Notes: generated by a model from the letters alone, not told the origin. Counted from the first letter of the stretch, positions 59 through 60,485 are shown. The stretch: DNA of 64,000 nt from Candidatus Daviesbacteria bacterium RIFCSPHIGHO2_12_FULL_37_16 (GCA_001776785.1 MFDF01000008.1:18443-82442), one strand, 5' to 3'. Numbers and translations are program-made.

Positions 59-742
59 ATGTCTAAAGGAAAATTAATTGTTATTGAGGGGACTGATGGT
101 GCAGGAAAAGGTACACAACTAAAAATATTAGAAGATAAATTAAAATCCCTCAAAATTAAATTTAAGGTGATAGACTTCCCAAGATACACAAATAATTTAT
201 ATGGAGAGCTTGTAGGCAGATTTCTAAAAGGGGAGTTTGGTCCCCTGGATCAGGTTGATCCCTACATTGCATCACTTGCTTATGCTGGAGACAGAATGCT
301 GGCAGGCCATGAAATTAAAAATTGGTTAGCTGATGGGCAGGTAGTAATTGCAAATAGGTATGTTCTTTCAAACAAAGCATATATGGCAGCCAGGCTTCCT
401 GAAAATGAAAGAAAAAAATATATTAACTGGCTGGAGAAATTAGAATATGGTTTAAATAAAGTCCCCAGGGAAGACTTAGTGATTTTTTTATATGTCCCAT
501 CAGAAATTGGTCAGGAAAATGTATTAAAAAAAGAAAAAAGGTCACACCTTGGTGATAAGAAAAGGGACATCATGGAAGAAGATTTAAACTTCCAAAAAAA
601 AGTTGCTCAAATTTATTTAGAGTTTGCCATTAAAGCCTCTAACTGGGCATTAATTGAATGCACAAGCAATGGAAAAATGAGATCTAAGCAAGAAATCCAT
701 GAGGAAATTCTAAAAATTTTAGAATCCAGAAGAATTATTTAA
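59..742 (+). CDS. tmk: thymidylate kinase
   Basis: N-terminal P-loop IEGTDGAGKGTQ and DR(Y/M) motif typical of dTMP kinase; size 227 aa. Confidence 0.9.
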   Translation: MSKGKLIVIEGTDGAGKGTQLKILEDKLKSLKIKFKVIDFPRYTNNLYGELVGRFLKGEFGPLDQVDPYIASLAYAGDRMLAGHEIKNWLADGQVVIANRYVLSNKAYMAARLPENERKKYINWLEKLEYGLNKVPREDLVIFLYVPSEIGQENVLKKEKRSHLGDKKRDIMEEDLNFQKKVAQIYLEFAIKASNWALIECTSNGKMRSKQEIHEEILKILESRRII

Positions 743-1760
743 ATTTTTTTAAAGTATGTTCTAATTTTTTCTGAAAATTGTCTGAGGAAATTCTTGCATC
801 TATATCCAGAGTTTCTGGATCATAAGCATCAGTTACTGCAAAAAGCCAGGATTTAATATCAGTTTTTTGGGATAAATGTTTTTGGTCTTTATCAGAATTG
901 GCCCAGACATCATTTGCATATATAACTATTTTTTGCAGGGGTAGCCTCAACCTTTGGGAAGCAATCATTCCCCACTCTCTGTCATGGTTGATATCAAGCT
1001 GGGCTCCCCCATAAGCATCTATTGCCCTGTGCAGATGATAAGAAGTAAAGCCTGTGGGATTTCCCTTCTTATCAAAGTTAATATAAAGCTGGTAGTTTTG
1101 ATAAACAGGCACAGCCCCGGCTGAACCTGAATGGTCAATATTTTGATAAATAAATGATGGAATGATTGCCCTTCTTGAGGTTGGAGAGTATCTTAATTCT
1201 TCAACAATTGATAAAAGTGTATCCTCTCTTTGGCTTTTTAACTCCAGATCCAAAATTTCAGGATTTTTTAAATAAAAGTTTATTAATTTCTCACCCTTCC
1301 AGGATAAAACTGCTAGAATAATTTCTGGATGATAAAGCTTGTAAGTTTGTTTAATTAAATCTATTAAATCACTCTTTTTACTAAAGTTAACTCTTTTTAA
1401 TTTTAAGTACTGTAAAAGTGAAATTACCCCCTTTAAATAGCCCCACCCAGAGTCATAATATCTTGACCTCCAGGCATATTTATAAGCATAAATATCCTGT
1501 TTGTGCTTTAAATATTCAGGAGGTTTATTTGACTCTTTTTTTACAAAATTATCCTGATACCAGTCATCCTCTGATTTACTCCAGTATGGATAGCTTTTTC
1601 TGTCATCCTGAGGCTCTGTAATTATAAAAGTTGCAGCTTTAATAGATCTGGATAAACCTCTCTGGCTTTTATACTCAGACCCGTTCTTTTTAATAGAATC
1701 CCAGGCCTTTTTTAGAACTGCATCTGCAGATTTGCCCTCAAATAAAAAACCTGTATTCAT
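735..1760 (-). CDS. thymidylate-synthase-fold protein lacking the catalytic cysteine (ThyA-like paralogue, function unknown)
   Basis: Motif-by-motif similarity to ThyA: N-term GSEYKSQRGLSRSIKAATF ~ GTQKNDRTGTGTLSIFG; SRRAIIPSFIY ~ SRRIIVSAWNV; HRAIDAYGG ~ QRSCDVFLG; the protein contains no Cys at all (ThyA nucleophile position reads VPVYQNYQLY). Confidence 0.5.
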   Translation of the reverse strand: MNTGFLFEGKSADAVLKKAWDSIKKNGSEYKSQRGLSRSIKAATFIITEPQDDRKSYPYWSKSEDDWYQDNFVKKESNKPPEYLKHKQDIYAYKYAWRSRYYDSGWGYLKGVISLLQYLKLKRVNFSKKSDLIDLIKQTYKLYHPEIILAVLSWKGEKLINFYLKNPEILDLELKSQREDTLLSIVEELRYSPTSRRAIIPSFIYQNIDHSGSAGAVPVYQNYQLYINFDKKGNPTGFTSYHLHRAIDAYGGAQLDINHDREWGMIASQRLRLPLQKIVIYANDVWANSDKDQKHLSQKTDIKSWLFAVTDAYDPETLDIDARISSDNFQKKLEHTLKKFK

Positions 1761-1762
1761 AA

Positions 1763-2416
1763 TTAATTTTTTGGAATTTGGGGCAGGGCAAATTTTTGTT
1801 TTAACTGTTTAATGTTCCCTTTAGCAATTAACTTTTCTTCTTTTTTGCTCTTCTCAGAAAGCCTGCCCACCATAATATCTTTTTTATGCCACCTTGATTG
1901 AACCACTTTTACAGGAGCAGATAAAGGATAAAATACCAGCTGACAAAACCTTTCACCAGGATAAATTCTGACTACCTGGTTTGAAGTGTTATTAGTAATT
2001 GGGATCAAAAGCCTGCCTTCATAACCTGCATCCACAATTCCTGACAGGTCAACAGACAGGCCTTTCCTGTTTATTGAAGATCTTGGGTATAAAACTGCCA
2101 TCAAATCATCAGGTAAAGAGACTTCCTCTAAAGTTGAAGCAACTACTGATTCTTTTGGCAAAAGGTCAAAAAATTGTCCATGCTCAAGCTCTATTAGTTC
2201 AAACCTGTCCCTTTCATCTAAATAATCTACTAAAAATGCTTCCCTGCCTTTTTCAGTCAGCCCCCAGACTTTAGGGACCATAAAACTATAACCAAGTCTT
2301 AAATCAATTGAGTGGGACTGGATCTGAAATTGGTCTATCTGGGGAGAAAATTTAAGTTTGCCAGATTTTAAATATTGTAAAATCTGATCCTTTACTAAAA
2401 TACCTGTTGAAACCAT
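1763..2416 (-). CDS. dcd: dCTP deaminase (possibly bifunctional dCTP deaminase/dUTPase)
   Basis: PRSSINRKGL...IVDAGYEG matches the dCTP deaminase/dUTPase jelly-roll motifs (GRSSLARLGL...IDPGWSG). Confidence 0.8.
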   Translation of the reverse strand: MVSTGILVKDQILQYLKSGKLKFSPQIDQFQIQSHSIDLRLGYSFMVPKVWGLTEKGREAFLVDYLDERDRFELIELEHGQFFDLLPKESVVASTLEEVSLPDDLMAVLYPRSSINRKGLSVDLSGIVDAGYEGRLLIPITNNTSNQVVRIYPGERFCQLVFYPLSAPVKVVQSRWHKKDIMVGRLSEKSKKEEKLIAKGNIKQLKQKFALPQIPKN

Positions 2417-2434
2417 AGTTTTTGTTATACCTTA

Positions 2435-3271
2435 CTACAATACAATCTGCAATCCTTTTATAGCCTCCATAGCTTTATATTGTGAATTTATTTGATCCAC
2501 AATTTCTGAAACTAAACTTACATCTCCTTTTTCTGCCCTTTCAAACCAGTTTACTTCTGCCTCTAAATTTATTTTTTTGTGGGTATTTTTTCTTTTAATA
2601 ATCTCCTTAGCTGCTTCGTAGTGGACCCCATAAATATGGGCATTAGAAATAGAGTGGGTATATTTTCCAACCTTCACCCCTAGTCTTGCTGCTAAAATCC
2701 TCTGTAAAAGTCCAAATCCTGCAGCATCATGGGGACACCCTAAAATCATATCATTAGACCTGACAATTAAATGAAGATGTAATTTTCCTCTAATAATATT
2801 AACTGTAAAAGTGTAAGGGCAGGGGATGTTAGCTTTTTTAAAAGTTGCAGAAAGCCCATCATTTGCAGGGTCCCACATCATGACAACTCCATGCCTTGAA
2901 GAGGGTTCTTTCTCAAGCATTTTTATTAAAAGTGCAATCTGGTCCCTGCCAAAGTGGTGTCTCCACCTATACCCATAAGCTGTTGATACAACCCCATCCA
3001 CATTTGTAAAATCATCCCAGATTTTAGTGAACTGATCTAAAAACTCACTAGGCCTTCTGGAACCCATTAAAAACCAAATCTGTTCTGCCACAAAAATTTT
3101 AACTGGAATTTTTCTCAAAGTTAGGATTGGAAAACCATCCTCTGGTTCTATTTCGATAGTTTTCCCTGGTAAAATTTTTACCTTATGATTAGTCCTCTCG
3201 TTTATCTCTTCATAGCCTGAATTCATGATATCTTTTAGGATTTTTTGATACTGCAAATCAAATTGGGTCAT
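2435..3271 (-). CDS. thyA: thymidylate synthase (ThyA family)
   Basis: SRRHGVVMMWDP, catalytic Cys in IPCPYTFTVNI, RSNDMILGCPHDAAGFGLL, and Asn in HSISNAHIY align with ThyA R126/R127, C146, R166-D169, N177 regions. Confidence 0.8.
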   Translation of the reverse strand: MTQFDLQYQKILKDIMNSGYEEINERTNHKVKILPGKTIEIEPEDGFPILTLRKIPVKIFVAEQIWFLMGSRRPSEFLDQFTKIWDDFTNVDGVVSTAYGYRWRHHFGRDQIALLIKMLEKEPSSRHGVVMMWDPANDGLSATFKKANIPCPYTFTVNIIRGKLHLHLIVRSNDMILGCPHDAAGFGLLQRILAARLGVKVGKYTHSISNAHIYGVHYEAAKEIIKRKNTHKKINLEAEVNWFERAEKGDVSLVSEIVDQINSQYKAMEAIKGLQIVL

Positions 3272-3329
3272 ATAGTGGATTGACTAAAGTGTAAAAGCAT
3301 ACTAAAACAAAAGGTATAACATTTTCAAT

Positions 3330-3896
3330 ATGAGCAAAATTTCAATTATTGCAGCTATGAGTAAAAACAGGGTTATTGGGACAAAAAATAAACTTCCATG
3401 GAATATCCCTGATGAATTAAAAAGGTTTAGGCAAATTACAGAAGGTCATCCAATAATCATGGGCAGAAAAACCCATGAATCCATTGGTAGGGTTTTACCC
3501 AATAGGCTAAACATTATTATCACAAGGGATGAAAATTATATTCGCAAGAATAATCTTGCTCATTATCAAACAAGATATAAAGTTGATGGTGTAATAATTG
3601 TCCATTCTTTGGAAGAAGCCATAAAAACTGCTAAGAATATATATCCTTCGGCTGCGCCCGCCTTTGGCGTGGCTGCGCCTCAGGATGACAAAAGTGAAAT
3701 CTTCATTATTGGGGGCGGGGAGATTTACAGACAGGCTTTACCCTTGGCAGATAAACTATATTTAACAGTAATAGATAAGAAATATGAAGGTGACACCTTC
3801 TTTCCAGACTATTCTGAGTTTAAAAAGGTGATAAAAGAAGAAAAAAAACAAACTGATGGTGGAGTTTCCTATACTCTTTTTGAACTTGAAAAATGA
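3330..3896 (+). CDS. folA: dihydrofolate reductase with two in-frame insertions
   Basis: IIAAMSKNRVIGTKNKLPWNIPDELKRF and IIMGRKTHESIG are classic DHFR motifs; extra loops NYIRKNNLAHYQTRYK and YPSAAPAFGVAAPQDDKS relative to E. coli DHFR. Confidence 0.85.
   Translation: MSKISIIAAMSKNRVIGTKNKLPWNIPDELKRFRQITEGHPIIMGRKTHESIGRVLPNRLNIIITRDENYIRKNNLAHYQTRYKVDGVIIVHSLEEAIKTAKNIYPSAAPAFGVAAPQDDKSEIFIIGGGEIYRQALPLADKLYLTVIDKKYEGDTFFPDYSEFKKVIKEEKKQTDGGVSYTLFELEK
3535..3580. repeat. short repeat, copy A (in frame within folA); 31-nt core near-identical to 17382-17415
   Basis: attatattcgcaagaataatcttgCtcattatc (A) vs atttatattcgcaagaataatcttgTtcattatc (B), followed by aaacaagatataa / aaaaaagatataa. 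Confidence 0.6.
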
Positions 3897-45208: not shown

Positions 45209-46246
45209 ATGAAATCTTTTTTAATTTTCTCTTTCTTAGTAAGTTTTTTAGCCCTGGGAATCTATTTTTTAAAAGATAGCAATAAATCAAACCTTCAGCC
45301 AATAATCCAAAGTTCGCTAAAACTTAATTCCCCAGCTCCTTCACCTTTCCCATTTGAAGAGTTAACAATCCCTTTTTTAAGAAATAAAGAGTTCAAAAGC
45401 AGCTTAGGGGAGTTAAAACTGGTAAGCAGTAATGGTAATTACACAAGCTACCTGACTTCTTATACCTCAGATGGTCTAAAAATTAATGGGTTATTAACAA
45501 AACCCTCAGGAGAAATGCCCTCTGGTGGCTGGCCAGCAATAGTTTTTGTCCATGGATATATCCCTCCAAAAACTTACCAGACTTTGGAAAAATATACTAT
45601 GCATGTAAATTTTTTAGCCAGTAATGGGTTTGTGGTATTTAAAATAGATTTAAGAGGTCATGGTACCTCAGAAGGTGAAGCAGGTGGGGGATATTACTCA
45701 TCAGATTATATTGTGGATGTCTTAAATGCCAGGGCAGCTTTGCAAAATTCTGACTTTGTAAACAAAGTTGGTCTTTGGGGCCACTCAATGGCAGGAAATG
45801 TGGTGATGAGGGCTTTTGCAGCAAAACCAGAAATCCCAGCAGTTGTTATCTGGGCAGGTGCAGTTTACACCTATAAAGACCTGGCTGATTATGGAATTTC
45901 TGACAATAGCTACCAGCCCTTACCCTCTGATTCAGAAAGACAGAGAAAAAGGCAGGAACTTAGAAATCTGTATGGGGATGCCAAAGATGGAAATCCTTTC
46001 TGGAATTTAGTTGCACCCACTAATTATCTAAATGACCTAAAGGGTGCATTAAGTCTAAACCATGCTGTAAATGATGATGTGGTTTCTATAGAATACAGTA
46101 GGAATTTAAGCAGGCTATTAAATGATACTTTAGTTACCCACGAGCTTCATGAATACCCAAATGGGGGACATAATATAAATGGCTCAAGCTTTACTCAAGC
46201 CATGCAAAATACAGTAGAATTTTTTAAAAAATATTTATCTAACTAA
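45209..46246 (+). CDS. alpha/beta hydrolase, tandem paralogue of the preceding gene
   Basis: Same motifs (GHSMAG, DLRGHGTSEGE) and collinear similarity. Confidence 0.7.
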   Translation: MKSFLIFSFLVSFLALGIYFLKDSNKSNLQPIIQSSLKLNSPAPSPFPFEELTIPFLRNKEFKSSLGELKLVSSNGNYTSYLTSYTSDGLKINGLLTKPSGEMPSGGWPAIVFVHGYIPPKTYQTLEKYTMHVNFLASNGFVVFKIDLRGHGTSEGEAGGGYYSSDYIVDVLNARAALQNSDFVNKVGLWGHSMAGNVVMRAFAAKPEIPAVVIWAGAVYTYKDLADYGISDNSYQPLPSDSERQRKRQELRNLYGDAKDGNPFWNLVAPTNYLNDLKGALSLNHAVNDDVVSIEYSRNLSRLLNDTLVTHELHEYPNGGHNINGSSFTQAMQNTVEFFKKYLSN

Positions 46247-46879
46247 ATCTAACTGGATATTTCCATCACTATTGGGTTTTGGATCAAAGGAAATATAATA
46301 CATCAGCCCATATTGGTGGATAGCTCTTGCAATAGAACTCCTTATCCAGTCTGAGTCATAATCCTTAAGCTTAGCTTCTTCAAATAAATTATCAACTAAA
46401 TTATCAGGTAATGGTTGCAATAGCCTACCCGCATGATTGCTTGCGATAAGCTGCACACTTTTTTTATCTAGAATTAAAACTGAAAGTATTTTGCCATTTG
46501 CATGTTCAATATCAGCATCAGTAGGAAAGGTTGCTTTTATATGAGCTGTCTTTTCAGGTATTGGATGAGAATGGGCAACTATAATTTCATTTGCTCCAAT
46601 AGAATCTAAACCATGGGGAAAAAAATCGAAATGAATTGAATGATTTTCTCCACTTTTTATATCAGTTTTAAGCAGTTTATTGCCCTTTGTTGAAATTATA
46701 AATCCAAATTCTTTGTCAGTTTCGCCTGTTTTTTTAAGCACTTCTTCCCATAGCTCATATCCCAAAACCTCACCAGGTATAAGAATATCAGAATTAGGAA
46801 AAACTCTATCTTTATGGGTTAAATCAATTAATTCAGGTTTGCGTTCAAAAATTAGTCTCTCAGTTTCCTGTGAATCCAT
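46235..46879 (-). CDS. hypothetical protein with RadC-like JAB/MPN metal-binding motif
   Basis: EFGFI...IIVAHSHP...FPTDADIEHA resembles E...HNHPSG...PSxxD. Confidence 0.35.
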   Translation of the reverse strand: MDSQETERLIFERKPELIDLTHKDRVFPNSDILIPGEVLGYELWEEVLKKTGETDKEFGFIISTKGNKLLKTDIKSGENHSIHFDFFPHGLDSIGANEIIVAHSHPIPEKTAHIKATFPTDADIEHANGKILSVLILDKKSVQLIASNHAGRLLQPLPDNLVDNLFEEAKLKDYDSDWIRSSIARAIHQYGLMYYISFDPKPNSDGNIQLDLVR

Positions 46880-48381: not shown

Positions 48382-49449
48382 TTACTCATAAAACCACATA
48401 TATTCAGGGTTTTCTACTTCTTTAATCTCAGGATCCCAGAGAAGCCACTTTCCGTCAATATTTCTTATCTCCCAAACTCCCTCAAAAAACTTGGTTTTAA
48501 TTTCATCTTCCACTAAATCTTTTGTGGAAAGTTTAACTTTAATATACCCTTCTTTATCGCCATTTTTAATGGAAATTACTGAGGTATCAAGATTGGATTC
48601 ATAGCCCTTTTTCCAGTTTTCAAATTTAAAATCCCCTTTATAATTATCAGATAAGAGTTCAAAAGCTTCTTCCATTTTTCTGATCTTTATATAGTTATAA
48701 AAAGCAGTTACAGCTTCCAGAGACCCCTTTTCAGGCTCAAAAGTGATAACTCTTACATCTTTTAAGGAGTCTTTGGATGTTGCCATATCTAGCCATTTTT
48801 GTTTGATAGACTCAGAAGTGATAGCCAGCCCCAGGCCTCCTGTGCCCGCAGTGTTTATTCCCATAACCTCTCCACAGATATTGATCATTGGCCCTCCTGA
48901 AACCCCTGGATTAAGTGTGGCATCAGTCTGGATATAATCTAAATTTGTATCTTTTTCATGCCTTCTTCCTGCAAGAGAACCTTTATTGACTGTAGATTCT
49001 CCAACTAAGCCTCCTCCAAAAGGGAATCCAATAGCTAAAAGTTCATCTGCAGGATTAAGTTTCTTACTATCACCCCATTTAACTTCAGGCAGTTTTCCAT
49101 TTATTTCCAAAAGTGCCAGGTCTGCATTTTTATCTCCCATTAAAACTTGGGCAGTTGCAAATTTATTATCAGGCATAATAATTTTGGGGCTTGGTTCAAA
49201 TTCAATAACATGAAAGTTGGTTAAAACTACATTTTCTTTGACTGCAAAGCCTGAACCCTCAGAAAAACCTCCCACAACCCGAACAACAGATTTTCTGATA
49301 TTTTCAATAGAATCTTTTTCATTGCATAAAATTAAACTCTTACCACCAAGTTTATTTTCAATTAAATTTAATCTTTTGCTGAGTTCAAAGTTTTGGTAAA
49401 CAAGAAAAGCTAGTATAGCTAAAAGCAAAAAGGGAAGTATCTTTTTCAC
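48382..49449 (-). CDS. S1-family (trypsin/HtrA-like) serine protease with non-PDZ C-terminal domain
   Basis: TNFHV (His), D, GVSGGPM (Ser) triad motifs; C-terminal ~120 aa without PDZ signature. Confidence 0.75.
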   Translation of the reverse strand: MKKILPFLLLAILAFLVYQNFELSKRLNLIENKLGGKSLILCNEKDSIENIRKSVVRVVGGFSEGSGFAVKENVVLTNFHVIEFEPSPKIIMPDNKFATAQVLMGDKNADLALLEINGKLPEVKWGDSKKLNPADELLAIGFPFGGGLVGESTVNKGSLAGRRHEKDTNLDYIQTDATLNPGVSGGPMINICGEVMGINTAGTGGLGLAITSESIKQKWLDMATSKDSLKDVRVITFEPEKGSLEAVTAFYNYIKIRKMEEAFELLSDNYKGDFKFENWKKGYESNLDTSVISIKNGDKEGYIKVKLSTKDLVEDEIKTKFFEGVWEIRNIDGKWLLWDPEIKEVENPEYMWFYE

Positions 49450-49536: not shown

Positions 49537-49827
49537 ATGAAAGTTATTTTAAGACCCCATTTAAAAATCCGTCTTAAGGAAAGAAAGATTCCGCAAAAGT
49601 ACCCAGAGATAATAGTCATAAGTCCTGAAAATAAATATTTGGATACTGAAACTAACCATCAAATTGTTGTAAAAAAGCTTGTATATAATGAAAAACTGAG
49701 GCCAATGGTGGTTTCCTATGATATAATAGATTCTACTATACAAATTATAACTATTCATCCAATAAGTGAACAGGAAATTCAAAATAAATTAAATAGAAAA
49801 AGGTGGATTAAAAATGAAGAAAACTAA
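49537..49827 (+). CDS. DUF4258-like small protein (putative toxin-like partner)
   Basis: Size, HLKIRLKERKIP N-terminus, 14-nt overlap with a DUF2283-like gene. Confidence 0.45.
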   Translation: MKVILRPHLKIRLKERKIPQKYPEIIVISPENKYLDTETNHQIVVKKLVYNEKLRPMVVSYDIIDSTIQIITIHPISEQEIQNKLNRKRWIKNEEN

Positions 49828-50056
49828 TCAAAAAATATACTACGATAAGAAAACTGATGTGCTTTGGTTTAATATTAAGGGCGGTTTAGAAGAAGAATAC
49901 AAAGAAGTAGCTCCTGGAGTAAATCTAGAGTTGGATAAAAATGGAGAACTTTTGGGGATAGAAGTACTTAATGCTTCCAAAACTTTAGGTTCTAAACTAG
50001 GACTTAAAAGTGTAAAAGCTATTCAGTCTGGTGCAGTAGCCCATTCAATCAAATAA
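49814..50056 (+). CDS. DUF2283-family small protein (putative antitoxin-like partner)
   Basis: YYDKKTDVLWFNI...GVNLELDKNGELLGIEVLNAS pattern. Confidence 0.55.
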   Translation: MKKTNQKIYYDKKTDVLWFNIKGGLEEEYKEVAPGVNLELDKNGELLGIEVLNASKTLGSKLGLKSVKAIQSGAVAHSIK

Positions 50057-50122
50057 CTAAAAAGCCCTTCAGATCTATCACTTCCTTTAGCCTCAAATTG
50101 AGAGTACAATAGCTGCAATAAT

Positions 50123-50827
50123 TTGCAGCATATGAAAATACAAGACGACGTATTATCCTACAGAGAGATGTGTGGCATTGAGGGAGTTCAAACCCTTCAA
50201 AGAGGAATGAATTTTAGATTAAATCCTAACTATTCTGTAATTTTAATGTCTCAAAGATCAAACGCACCATATCAAGATAAAATTCACGATGATGGAATAA
50301 CAATTGAATATGAGGGGCATGATGTCTCAAGACAAAGTTATCAACACAACCCAAAAGATGAAGATCAACCTTCTACACTACCTTCTGGGAAATTAACTCA
50401 AAACGGATTATTTATAAAAGCAGCAGAAGAATACAAAGCAAATAAAAGGGAAGGTGAACCAGTAAAAGTTTATGAAAAAATTATGGACGGGGTTTGGTCA
50501 TTGAAAGGGATATTTGAACTTGCAGATTACAAAATAGTTCATGATGGCAAAAGAAATGTCTTTAGATTTATTTTAAATCTTACAAACGAATCAATAATAG
50601 GCGAAACTAAAACAATTGAAATATCTCATACAAGATTAATCCCAACAGAAGTTAAAAAAGAAGTTTGGAAAAGAGATAAAGGCCAATGTGTTTTATGTAG
50701 TGATACCAAAAACCTACATTTTGATCATGATTTACCCTATTCAAAGGGAGGAACAAGCTTAAGTGTTAAAAATGTTAGACTTCTTTGTATGAAACACAAC
50801 CTCCAAAAATCAGGAAAAATTGAATGA
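50123..50827 (+). CDS. SRA(YDG)-like domain fused to HNH nuclease; candidate type IV modification-dependent restriction endonuclease
   Basis: N-domain YSVILMSQRSNAPYQDKIHDDGITIEYEGHD resembles the SRA core (SIVLSGGYEDDEDHGD.LIYTGQGG); C-terminal CVLCSDTKNLHFDHDLPYSKGG...NVRLLCMKHN HNH motif. Confidence 0.5.
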   Translation: MQHMKIQDDVLSYREMCGIEGVQTLQRGMNFRLNPNYSVILMSQRSNAPYQDKIHDDGITIEYEGHDVSRQSYQHNPKDEDQPSTLPSGKLTQNGLFIKAAEEYKANKREGEPVKVYEKIMDGVWSLKGIFELADYKIVHDGKRNVFRFILNLTNESIIGETKTIEISHTRLIPTEVKKEVWKRDKGQCVLCSDTKNLHFDHDLPYSKGGTSLSVKNVRLLCMKHNLQKSGKIE

Positions 50828-50834
50828 ATAAATT

Positions 50835-51116
50835 GTGAAAATATCTGTTTCTGCTAAACCTAAGAGTAAAAAGGAGTTTATTAAAAAGCTCAAAGATTTT
50901 TCTTATTCTGTTGCTGTAAAAGAAGAAGCAAAGGAGGGAAGGGCTAATGAGGCTGTTATTAAAGCTCTCTCAGAATATTTTAATATTCCCAAATCTGAAA
51001 TTAAAATTGTTACAGGACTTTCATTTAAACAAAAAATCATAGAACTTCCTTTAACTGAAAAAGAAATAAAAGAAATTGAAGATTCAAAAATATTGCAGCC
51101 TAGACTAATTCCCTAA
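50835..51116 (+). CDS. DUF167 (YggU-like) protein
   Basis: ISVSAKPKSKKEFI...VAVKEEAKEGRANEAVIKALSEYF...IKIVTGLSFKQK. Confidence 0.7.
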   Translation: MKISVSAKPKSKKEFIKKLKDFSYSVAVKEEAKEGRANEAVIKALSEYFNIPKSEIKIVTGLSFKQKIIELPLTEKEIKEIEDSKILQPRLIP

Positions 51117-51788
51117 GGATTTTAAGCAGGCTGCTTTGGCTGAGGCATCTGTGATCTGATCACAGATTGATGCATCTAGCTTTGGCATAGGACCTGTTCC
51201 AGTTCCCTGAACCTTTTTTAAAAGCTCTGACATATCTGTGAAAGTCACATTTGTAGGTACTGTAAATTTAGAATTGTCCACACTCCAGTTTTTGCAGTTC
51301 ATATCAACTTCTTTGTTTAAATCAGCACTTTGGGGCGCTCCTGCAGGAGCAGAAGGAATTGGCTGGTTAGGATCTATTGTAATTTTTGTCCCCTGGTTTG
51401 AAGCATCAGTCCAGACATAAGCTGTATTATTCTCATTTATCATATGGCTCATCAGCTCTTTATTATCAACTTTGGTTGTAAAATCCCCTCTGACTTTAGT
51501 CCCTGCAACATAAACTGTCCCAGAACCTGACCCTTCTGGATAAGATATAGAACAAGTCACATTTTTACCCTGTTTTAATAAACTCTGGATTGTCCCTTTA
51601 TTTGCTGAAGACTCAGGAAGTTGTTGTTCTTCTTGTTGTGTCACAGTCTGCTGAGTCTGACTTTCACCTCTATTTAGCTGCAATAAAGCCACTACCCCAA
51701 TGACTGCTAAAACTACTACTATAGCTGTAACTATTGCTGTCTGCCTGTTCATTAGCCACAAGTATACCCTATATTTTTCTAAAAGCAA
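51105..51788 (-). CDS. hypothetical membrane-anchored secreted protein
   Basis: TM anchor, Q-rich linker, Cys-containing domain. Confidence 0.35.
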   Translation of the reverse strand: MLLEKYRVYLWLMNRQTAIVTAIVVVLAVIGVVALLQLNRGESQTQQTVTQQEEQQLPESSANKGTIQSLLKQGKNVTCSISYPEGSGSGTVYVAGTKVRGDFTTKVDNKELMSHMINENNTAYVWTDASNQGTKITIDPNQPIPSAPAGAPQSADLNKEVDMNCKNWSVDNSKFTVPTNVTFTDMSELLKKVQGTGTGPMPKLDASICDQITDASAKAACLKSLGN

Positions 51789-52136: not shown

Positions 52137-52397
52137 CTATCCCTCTTTCTCAACAGCAATTGTGCACTCAGAAACTAAAGCAATTATTGTCCCAATTGCT
52201 GCCAGTGGGGGAAGCACAACTGCACCTATTACCCCAACTGTCAGGGGAAACTCAGCAATGACTTTTCCCTCTTTACTTTTTATGGTTATCTTTCTGATAT
52301 TACCCTCTTGGACTAACTCCCTTAACTTTTTTAAAATATCCTCACCAGAAACTTTAAACTCTTCTGTCCTTGTTTTCTTTTTAGCCATACTATTCAC
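52137..52397 (-). CDS. DUF4342-family protein
   Basis: EEFKVSGEDILKKLRELVQEGNIRKITIKSKEGKVIAEFPLTVGVIGAVVLPPLAAIGTIIALVSECTI. Confidence 0.6.
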   Translation of the reverse strand: MNSMAKKKTRTEEFKVSGEDILKKLRELVQEGNIRKITIKSKEGKVIAEFPLTVGVIGAVVLPPLAAIGTIIALVSECTIAVEKEG

Positions 52398-52809
52398 CTC
52401 CTACCTTCTCTCTAATTGTTGAATGGTCTGGATATTCACTTTCAGTTGGGTAATGGATGTCTTTAAACTTTTCAATCTCTTCAAAAATCCTCTCAAACCC
52501 TAAATTGATACATTCATCAATAGTCCTGCCCTTAAAATGGACATAAAGCCTGTTTTTATCAAGCCTGAAAGTAATTGAACCCTCATAAAAAGCCAATGAA
52601 GGCTTTTTATCTGAATAAGTTTTATGGGAGTGGGGATGGGTCCTTTGGGGATGATACTTATCAGTATTTCTTTTTAGTGTTAACCTGAAAACAATTAAAT
52701 CACTCTCAACATGAGGCAGGGCCTTAACAATCTTTTCTAAATTTGCCTGGATATGTTTGTGGTTATCTTCTGAAAGTTCACAATTTTTGCAAGTTATCTT
52801 AAGAATCAT
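52390..52809 (-). CDS. HPF/RaiA-like ribosome hibernation factor with an inserted His/Pro-rich loop
   Basis: ILKITCKNCELSEDNHKHIQANLEKIVK ... SDLIVFRLTLKRN pattern of the YfiA/HPF fold. Confidence 0.45.
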   Translation of the reverse strand: MILKITCKNCELSEDNHKHIQANLEKIVKALPHVESDLIVFRLTLKRNTDKYHPQRTHPHSHKTYSDKKPSLAFYEGSITFRLDKNRLYVHFKGRTIDECINLGFERIFEEIEKFKDIHYPTESEYPDHSTIREKVGGE

Positions 52810-59299: not shown

Positions 59300-60485
59300 T
59301 ATATCTACTAAATCATTTAAGGGATGCAAAAGATGAGATACATCGGTAACACTCCTGAGGTAGAATTTTTACCCAGGGAGGTGATTACAGATGAAAAAGA
59401 TCAGGTATCTCCTGCAACCCAAATTAGATCCTAAAATACCAGATAAATGGACTTTTTTAAGGAAATTTGCCAAGAAACAAATTAGTGAAAAAGCTCAGCT
59501 AAAGCTGGAATGGATAATTTTCTACCATACATCCTCAGGTAAAAATGCCAAAGCTACAGCAATGCATTTTGGTATATCCAGAAAAACATTACATAAGTGG
59601 CTTAGTAGATTTGATGAAATTCACTTAAAGAGTTTAGAAGAGTACTCTAGAGCACCCAGACATGTTAGACACAGGCAAATTGATCTTTGGGAAAGAGGCA
59701 GGATTACTAAATTAAGGAAGAAACACCTAAAGTATGGCAAGATGAAACTGCAAAGAAGATACTTAAAAGTTTATGGTGAATATATCTCTTCCTGGAAGAT
59801 CCAAAAAGTAATTGAAGAGGGTAATCTCTACCCAGACAAACAAGCAGCCAAAAAAGCAAGGGAAAAGAAAAACAGGCATAAAGGACAGGCTAAAAAGAGG
59901 ATTACCCAGTTTCAAAAGAAAGAAATTACTAACTACCTTTGGCATGTAGATACAGTTTTGTTAACCATGAGTTCTGGAGGGTACAGATACCTTTTAACTG
60001 CAATTGATGAAGTTTCTAAACTAGCCTACTCCAGACTCTACACTACTCATTCATCAAAACAAGCTAAAGACTTTCTTTTAAGGCTTAATTACTTAACTGA
60101 TCAAAGAATCATCAATTTACATCATGATAATGGCTCAGAGTTTAAAAAAGACTTTGAAAAGGCTTGTGAAGAACTTAAACTGCCCCAGTGGTACTCCAGA
60201 CCACATACACCTAAAGATAATCCAGTCTTAGAAAGGTTTAACAGAACTATCCAGGAAGAATTTACTAACTTTTGGGATGTTAATCCTATGGATGTGGAAG
60301 ACTTTAACTTACAGCTTTTAGACTGGTTAATTGAATACAACTCCATTAGGCCTCATCAAACCCTTGATTACCAGACTCCTTTAGAATATATTGATACCCA
60401 TACCTTAGAAAAAGTGTCACCTATGTACTCATCCAGTACAAGGGATTGACAATTTATCCTAAAGTGATAGTCTAAACTTATAGTT
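59300..60485 (+). mobile_element. putative IS481-family insertion sequence; terminal inverted repeats only weakly recognisable
   Basis: Possible imperfect IRs ctaaatcatttaagggat (left, ~59311) vs atcctaaagtgatag (right, ~60460-60475); ~13/16 match. Confidence 0.35.
59391..60449 (+). CDS. IS481-like DDE transposase (rve integrase core)
   Basis: N-terminal HTH FGISRKTLHKWLSRFDE; HVDTV...D, HHDNGSEF, RPHTPKDNPVLERFNRTIQEEF (DDE motif). Confidence 0.8.
   Translation: MKKIRYLLQPKLDPKIPDKWTFLRKFAKKQISEKAQLKLEWIIFYHTSSGKNAKATAMHFGISRKTLHKWLSRFDEIHLKSLEEYSRAPRHVRHRQIDLWERGRITKLRKKHLKYGKMKLQRRYLKVYGEYISSWKIQKVIEEGNLYPDKQAAKKAREKKNRHKGQAKKRITQFQKKEITNYLWHVDTVLLTMSSGGYRYLLTAIDEVSKLAYSRLYTTHSSKQAKDFLLRLNYLTDQRIINLHHDNGSEFKKDFEKACEELKLPQWYSRPHTPKDNPVLERFNRTIQEEFTNFWDVNPMDVEDFNLQLLDWLIEYNSIRPHQTLDYQTPLEYIDTHTLEKVSPMYSSSTRD

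Follow-up and report, generated by a model that had tools for sequence, protein, structure and literature searches.

A likely type IV restriction endonuclease of SRA-HNH architecture in Daviesbacteria belongs to a clade spread across uncultured lineages

Type IV restriction endonucleases that join an SRA domain to an HNH nuclease are represented by TagI, ScoA3IV (Sco5333) and TbiR51I (PDB 6ghs; PMC6212794, PMC4333417, PMC6765204). How an SRA domain reads a modified base has been described for SUVH5, where Gln392 occupies the space vacated by the flipped base, with which Tyr416 and Tyr428 form stacking contacts and whose Watson–Crick edge is read by Asp418 (PMC4740795). TagI uses Gln35, Tyr55, Tyr67 and Asp58 for the same roles, and its HNH domain shows a cleavage-site preference of its own (PMC6212794). 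SUVH5 binds 5-methylcytosine (5mC) and 5-hydroxymethylcytosine (5hmC) equally. Here we describe a gene with this architecture in a 64,000-nucleotide (nt) stretch of DNA, one strand, from Candidatus Daviesbacteria bacterium RIFCSPHIGHO2_12_FULL_37_16 (MFDF01000008.1), hereafter the window. The gene (50132–50827, plus strand) encodes a protein of 231 amino acids (aa) and is the third of four open reading frames (ORFs), all on the plus strand, that fill positions 49537–51116. Based on its fold, its conserved residues and the genomic contexts of its relatives, we consider it likely that this protein is a solitary SRA-HNH endonuclease acting as a type IV restriction enzyme, the role for which an earlier note on this DNA had named it a candidate.

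The reading frame is open from a TTG at 50123, which yields the 234 aa given in the earlier note, whereas all deposited homologues begin at the ATG at 50132. The protein has been deposited as EKD91092/KKQ10714 under the names 'HNH endonuclease' or 'Restriction endonuclease', and exact copies are recorded from Candidatus Daviesiibacteriota genomes from Rifle groundwater. Its first ~165 residues have no Pfam, NCBIfam or PADLOC match, and the SAD_SRA model (PF02182) finds nothing there at E ≤ 1. A search with residues 1–162 against 1.84 billion cluster representatives recovered 761 relatives, and a profile built from 36 diverse full-length relatives (alignment A2) matched the SRA domain of SUVH5 across the whole domain (E 2.8e-4). 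Among these 36 relatives, 22 match PF02182 (best E 8e-8) and 24 match HNH, so that the comparison with PF02182 suggested by the earlier note gives a mixed picture, negative for the query itself and positive for part of its family. These sequence results agree with the SRA β-barrel fold of the N-terminal domain (~residues 8–150, 50153–50581, plus strand, by profile alignment to SUVH5), which had been suspected.

In the SUVH5 register, Gln392-Ser393-Gly394 corresponds to Q23-R24-G25, Tyr416-Asn-Asp418 to Y47-Q48-D49 and Tyr428 to Y60, which places a predicted thumb at Q23-R24-G25 and a predicted base pocket at Y47, D49 and Y60. These positions are invariant in a close set of 40 homologues and either invariant or at least 90% conserved in the 36 distant ones; by alignment, the flipped-base pocket and thumb residue of SRA-HNH enzymes are therefore both in place. 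His63, which stands at SUVH5 Gln431, and D78-Q79 are invariant residues specific to this family. A flexible linker of ~15 residues leads to the HNH (ββα-Me) nuclease domain (~residues 169–231 plus the stop codon, 50636–50827, plus strand). HNH-type models score below their curated cutoffs (HNH_5, 19.5 bits, cutoff 27.5; HNH, 17.6 bits, cutoff 21.4). The C-x2-C...HFDHD...N...LC..HN motif read by the earlier note is present, and C186-x2-C189, D198-H199, N214 and C219-x2-H222-N223 are invariant in the 40 close homologues. In profile alignments, H199 coincides with the catalytic His in the HNH domains of IscB and Gme, and C186/C189 together with C219/H222 are presumed to be the zinc ligands. Judged by these residues, the C-terminal domain is intact with respect to its catalytic His, Asn residues and zinc ligands.

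By analogy with characterised relatives (PMC6212794, PMC6765204, PMC4333417), the SRA domain would flip 5mC and/or 5hmC into the Y47/Y60/D49 pocket, with Q23 of the thumb loop filling the gap left in the duplex, and the linker-joined HNH domain would then nick or cut nearby DNA at a variable short distance. As in TagI, the protein would probably dimerise via its HNH domains. If the cell's own DNA carries no C5-cytosine modification it would escape, and marked phage or other incoming DNA would be cut.

Domain composition varies among the relatives in alignment A2. In P0146, P0151, P0178, P0181, P0188 and P0238, which are 40–50% identical, the pocket is kept and the HFDH motif is lost, and these proteins may be inactivated nucleases or non-cutting readers of modified DNA. 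Others carry an additional N-terminal domain, namely HIT in P0135 (350 aa, E 3e-17), a PemK/MazF toxin domain in P0211 (397 aa, E 3e-10) and a D12-class N6-adenine methyltransferase in P0198 (429 aa, E 2e-15), the last of which ends after the SRA domain without an HNH domain. Such proteins may be genuine fusions or may reflect errors in gene calling.

The nuclease is widely distributed and highly conserved. A word-indexed search returned at least 7,964 matches (best E 2.8e-153), the best 120 of which, without exception, span the full length at 72% identity or more. In a scan of one genome per species, relatives were found in 187 species, and the best 80 of these are 64–84% identical and come from many classes of Patescibacteria, from complete chromosomes of Omnitrophota (3.36 Mb) and Acidobacteriota (4.17 Mb), from metagenome-assembled genomes of Alphaproteobacteria, Deltaproteobacteria, Zixibacteria and Bacteroidota, and from a few short contigs binned as archaea. 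The labels of bins call for caution, above all 'uncultured Gammaproteobacteria' and those of the short contigs assigned to archaea. The GC content of the gene follows that of the host only in part (r 0.73, slope 0.45), and the gene has 39–52% GC in hosts of 55–65% GC, a sign that it was transferred rather recently from low-GC donors. At third codon positions GC ranges from 0.18 to 0.67 (L013–L092) and rises with the GC content of the host (slope 0.82), yet the proteins remain 64–84% identical, a pattern that points to strong purifying selection on the gene as it crossed phylum boundaries. A viral origin was considered and rejected, since no relatives were found in viral contigs (IMG/VR) and matches in sequenced phages and plasmids were to the HNH part only.

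Gene neighbourhoods were surveyed at 84 other SRA-HNH loci by clustering the neighbouring proteins and annotating recurrent clusters. Recurrent neighbours include RadC (8 loci), a DpnI-like enzyme (4), NmeDI_C (4) and an N4/N6 methyltransferase with an MvaI/BcnI endonuclease (6), and single loci also hold GmrSD, a reverse transcriptase, Fic, HicA and Gp49/HTH pairs. C5-methyltransferase-like ORFs were absent from the 1,103 neighbouring ORFs of these loci, nine of which were of the N6/N4 type, and a motif scan found no methyltransferase motifs in the window, including next to the nuclease. These defence-island contexts, together with the missing C5-methyltransferases, fit a mobile, stand-alone, modification-dependent restriction gene.

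The most frequent partners were two further genes. A MazG-like protein (~115 aa) lies near the nuclease in 24 of the 84 loci, usually two genes upstream, and a Schlafen-group-3/DUF2075 helicase (620–800 aa, with an N-terminal nuclease-like region and PADLOC matches to PDC-S41, AbiO and Nhi) is found in 26. In 20 loci the helicase gene is the direct upstream neighbour of the SRA-HNH gene and shares its strand; in all of these but one, the gap between the two is -19 to +15 nt. Both partners occur together in 21 loci. The same-strand trio, with the partners at positions -2 and -1 relative to the SRA-HNH gene, recurs in L008, L009, L014, L015, L017, L023, L031, L037–L039, L043, L051, L053, L064, L068, L070, L073, L075, L076, L083 and others, and a search of the literature found no description of a MazG/DUF2075 defence system. 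It is conceivable, if on balance doubtful, that a MazG-like pyrophosphatase, an Nhi/AbiO-like helicase and the SRA-HNH protein as sensor and effector form an undescribed three-gene defence system, of which the solo Daviesbacteria copy, whose window holds neither partner, would be a remnant. Such a system would attack phages with modified cytosine both through their pool of modified dNTPs and through the modified DNA itself, and the 64–84% identity of the nuclease could then reflect constraints from its partners or a very specific target.

Several observations weigh against assigning the Daviesbacteria protein to type IV restriction. The protein itself is not recognised by the Pfam SRA model, and its HNH scores lie under the curated cutoffs. 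Its link to TagI and ScoMcrA is by fold similarity only, HNH motifs are degenerate in some relatives, and restriction enzymes are not usually conserved at 64–84% identity between phyla. The absence of host C5-methylation was checked by a rough motif scan that covered the 64-kb window. Finally, the base that the protein prefers may be different from the one read by the characterised enzymes, because His63 replaces SUVH5 Gln431 and the pocket carboxylate has Y-x-D spacing where TagI has Y-x-x-D.

An alternative role, in which the SRA-like domain is a general DNA-binding module and the protein a modification-independent nuclease (type II-like, nicking or repair), would agree with its only notable PADLOC match (E 1.5e-6), which covers the C-terminal portion of a model named 'Type II restriction enzyme', with the N4/N6 methyltransferase two genes upstream in 6 of the 84 loci, and with the cleavage-site preference of the TagI HNH domain. 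However, the tyrosines and carboxylate of the flipped-cytosine pocket and the thumb glutamine are invariant across the family, the methyltransferase in those six loci is already paired with its own MvaI/BcnI-type endonuclease, and most loci, including this window, lack a methyltransferase nearby. We therefore regard modification-independent cleavage as improbable.

Slightly less probable still is that an episymbiotic cell of the candidate phyla radiation (CPR) uses the enzyme to digest methylated host or environmental DNA for nucleotide salvage, or to attack its host, with phage defence secondary. Patescibacteria, where the clade is concentrated, depend on nucleotides from outside, and a salvage-type nucleotide-metabolism cluster spans 59–3896 of the window, encoding thymidylate kinase (Tmk, 59–742), dCTP deaminase (1763–2416), ThyA (2435–3271) and DHFR (3330–3896). 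Set against this are the near-identical proteins on the complete Omnitrophota and Acidobacteriota chromosomes and the typical anti-phage genes that neighbour the nuclease. The sequence also gives no hint of export, since residues 1–5 are of low confidence in a structural model of the monomer and the SRA domain follows directly. The cluster further includes a 341-aa ORF (735–1760, minus strand) with no Pfam or PDB match, whose resemblance to ThyA is confined to an insignificant 'P-x-SRR' patch (BLAST E 9), and nothing that we found supports the connection drawn in the earlier note between the nuclease and a set of ThyA paralogues.

A selfish, homing-endonuclease-like element, spread and conserved through its own mobility, would account for 64–84% identity across distant phyla with incomplete GC amelioration and recalls both the HNH domains common in homing endonucleases and the HNH-only phage matches, but it is hardly credible given that there is no intron or intein context, flanking repeat or defined insertion boundary, that viral contigs and sequenced phages yielded no copies, that positions inside defence islands vary, and that SRA domains have no known role in homing. 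Action as a type IV restriction enzyme therefore remains the reading we favour for the nuclease.

The two genes upstream of the nuclease form a toxin–antitoxin-like module. ORF1 (49537–49827, plus strand) is the first gene of this module and encodes a 96-aa predicted RNase toxin of the BECR (RelE/BrnT/colicin-like) fold, related to DUF4258. ORF2 (49814–50056, plus strand), the putative antitoxin, is an 80-aa DUF2283 protein that overlaps ORF1 by 14 nt, its ATG preceded at 8 nt by a Shine–Dalgarno-like AGGTGG. The earlier note had read these as a DUF4258/DUF2283 pair. The overlap and the second family assignment hold, with ORF2 matching PF10049 over the full model length (49.2 bits, cutoff 23, E 6e-13), but ORF1 does not match the DUF4258 model (PF14076) at E ≤ 10, nor any Pfam, NCBIfam or PADLOC model at E ≤ 1, despite being named 'DUF4258 domain-containing' in UniRef. 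Weak DUF4258 matches occur in 8 of 35 relatives of ORF1 (best E 0.011), and no usable match came from PDB sequences, whether they were searched with DUF2283 or with the family profile of ORF1. ORF1 and the nuclease ORF can be taken as real genes and not chance ORFs, because the nuclease has thousands of homologues and ORF1 has 37.

An overlapping pair of the ORF1/DUF2283 type was also found at L010, L011 and L012, in unrelated housekeeping contexts; the two genes were paired in every relative examined. This recurrent partner, together with the toxin-type fold, supports a toxin–antitoxin-like module independent of the nuclease, in line with the earlier prediction for the small ORFs. The closest known kin of ORF1 are DUF4258/BECR-fold type II toxins, BrnT, RelE and the colicin E5/D RNases. 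It differs from the DUF4258 type II toxins in being partnered by DUF2283 and not by an MqsA/HTH-type antitoxin, and whereas the toxin comes first here, the Gerdes 2025 catalogue of BECR-fold toxins places the antitoxin first for DUF4258 (PMC11980606).

Downstream of the nuclease, a 93-aa protein (50835–51116, plus strand) belongs to the DUF167/YggU family, as had been called before, with PF02594 (61.1 bits, cutoff 30.9, E 1e-16) and TIGR00251 (65.1 bits, cutoff 35, E 5e-18) both above their curated cutoffs and weak PDB matches to YggU (1n91) and MTH637 (1jrm). DUF167/YggU proteins are widespread small proteins without a link to defence, and this one is best regarded as an unrelated, non-recurrent neighbour of the nuclease.

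At the transcript level, the four genes are probably expressed together in this window, because no terminator was predicted between them; promoter-like sites showed no enrichment. The nuclease ATG follows ORF2 after a spacer of 75 nt, and 7 nt separate the nuclease stop codon from the DUF167 start. A hairpin with a perfect 6-bp stem (GCTGCA-ATAATT-TGCAGC, 50112–50129, plus strand), read from the sequence, ends 2 nt 5′ of the nuclease ATG, and no Shine–Dalgarno sequence was seen upstream of that start; the hairpin might influence how translation starts, or it might be the point where the toxin–antitoxin transcript ends.

Whether these genes constitute a defence-like islet, as the earlier note had proposed, is a separate question. 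A single co-functional unit, in which the toxin–antitoxin pair regulates or backs up the nuclease and DUF167 is accessory, could be argued from the co-directional genes, the overlap and short gaps without a terminator-like site between them, and the identical four-gene arrangement in every strain-level contig. However, no DUF167 or toxin homologue lies within 6 kb of the nuclease in any of the 84 other SRA-HNH loci, a DUF2283-like match occurs in just one (~3.6 kb away), none of the three other toxin–antitoxin loci, all between housekeeping genes, has the nuclease nearby, and the closest nuclease homologue (84% identical, in a Daviesbacterium, L013) has a different gene context. The proposed unit is thus largely refuted and can be given very little credence; the four genes are neighbours that do not travel together. 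Among related genomes, synteny is already lost where the flanking peptidase is 62–65% identical, the loci with such relatives in a metagenome scan sharing no other flanking gene.

The four-gene block is flanked by two minus-strand genes, for a trypsin-like peptidase (48382–49449) and a 227-aa membrane protein (51105–51788). Its GC content is 31%, against 36% for the whole window, and no meaningful direct or inverted repeats surround it, nor are insertion scars visible. About 8 kb downstream, a 352-aa transposase/integrase (rve and rve_3 core with HTH_28/HTH_23; 59391–60449, plus strand) indicates mobile DNA in the region, with no established link to the four genes. Two conserved flanking ORFs lack a Pfam match, one of 139 aa (52390–52809, minus strand) and one of 214 aa (46235–46879, minus strand), the latter containing an 'AHSHP...D' stretch that is reminiscent of a JAB/MPN metalloprotease motif.

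If the nuclease acts as proposed, the spread of this compact 231-aa clade through uncultured groundwater and soil lineages would imply that Patescibacteria are commonly threatened by phages or other incoming DNA bearing C5-modified cytosine, and that they maintain their own genomes without such marks. SRA-HNH enzymes are useful as reagents for mapping 5mC and 5hmC and as pointers to the DNA modifications circulating in a community. Members of this clade are under-counted in surveys of defence systems because the Pfam SRA model misses the sequence and annotation stops at 'HNH endonuclease'.

Compared with described systems, the Daviesbacteria nuclease shares its architecture and predicted mechanism with the TagI/ScoA3IV/TbiR51I group. 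No sequence similarity to TagI or ScoMcrA was detected at E ≤ 10 with phmmer or the family profile, and the relationship is visible only in the fold and via SUVH5, whose SRA domain (PDB 3q0b, 4ygi) is the closest sequence relative. SUVH5 is itself a plant histone methyltransferase, a nuclease-free chromatin reader fused to a SET domain, which has the same Y-x-D carboxylate spacing as this clade. Unlike the TagI group, the clade has an invariant E-G-H-D motif where those enzymes have T-G-x-G-G, its zinc site appears to be C-x2-C...C-x2-H, and its hosts centre on low-GC Patescibacteria, whereas published TagI-group hosts are mostly high-GC Actinobacteria and Proteobacteria. ScoMcrA (SBD-SRA-HNH) carries an additional sulfur-binding domain for phosphorothioate that is absent here, and MspJI, LpnPI and AspBHI combine an SRA-like domain with a PD-(D/E)XK nuclease in place of HNH. 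The biology proposed here therefore extends the known mechanism of SRA-HNH type IV enzymes and introduces no new one, for a gene already annotated as an HNH or restriction endonuclease; the clade is set apart by its lack of detectable sequence similarity to TagI and ScoA3IV, its low-GC uncultured hosts, its high conservation across phyla and its recurrent operon with MazG-like and Nhi-like genes.
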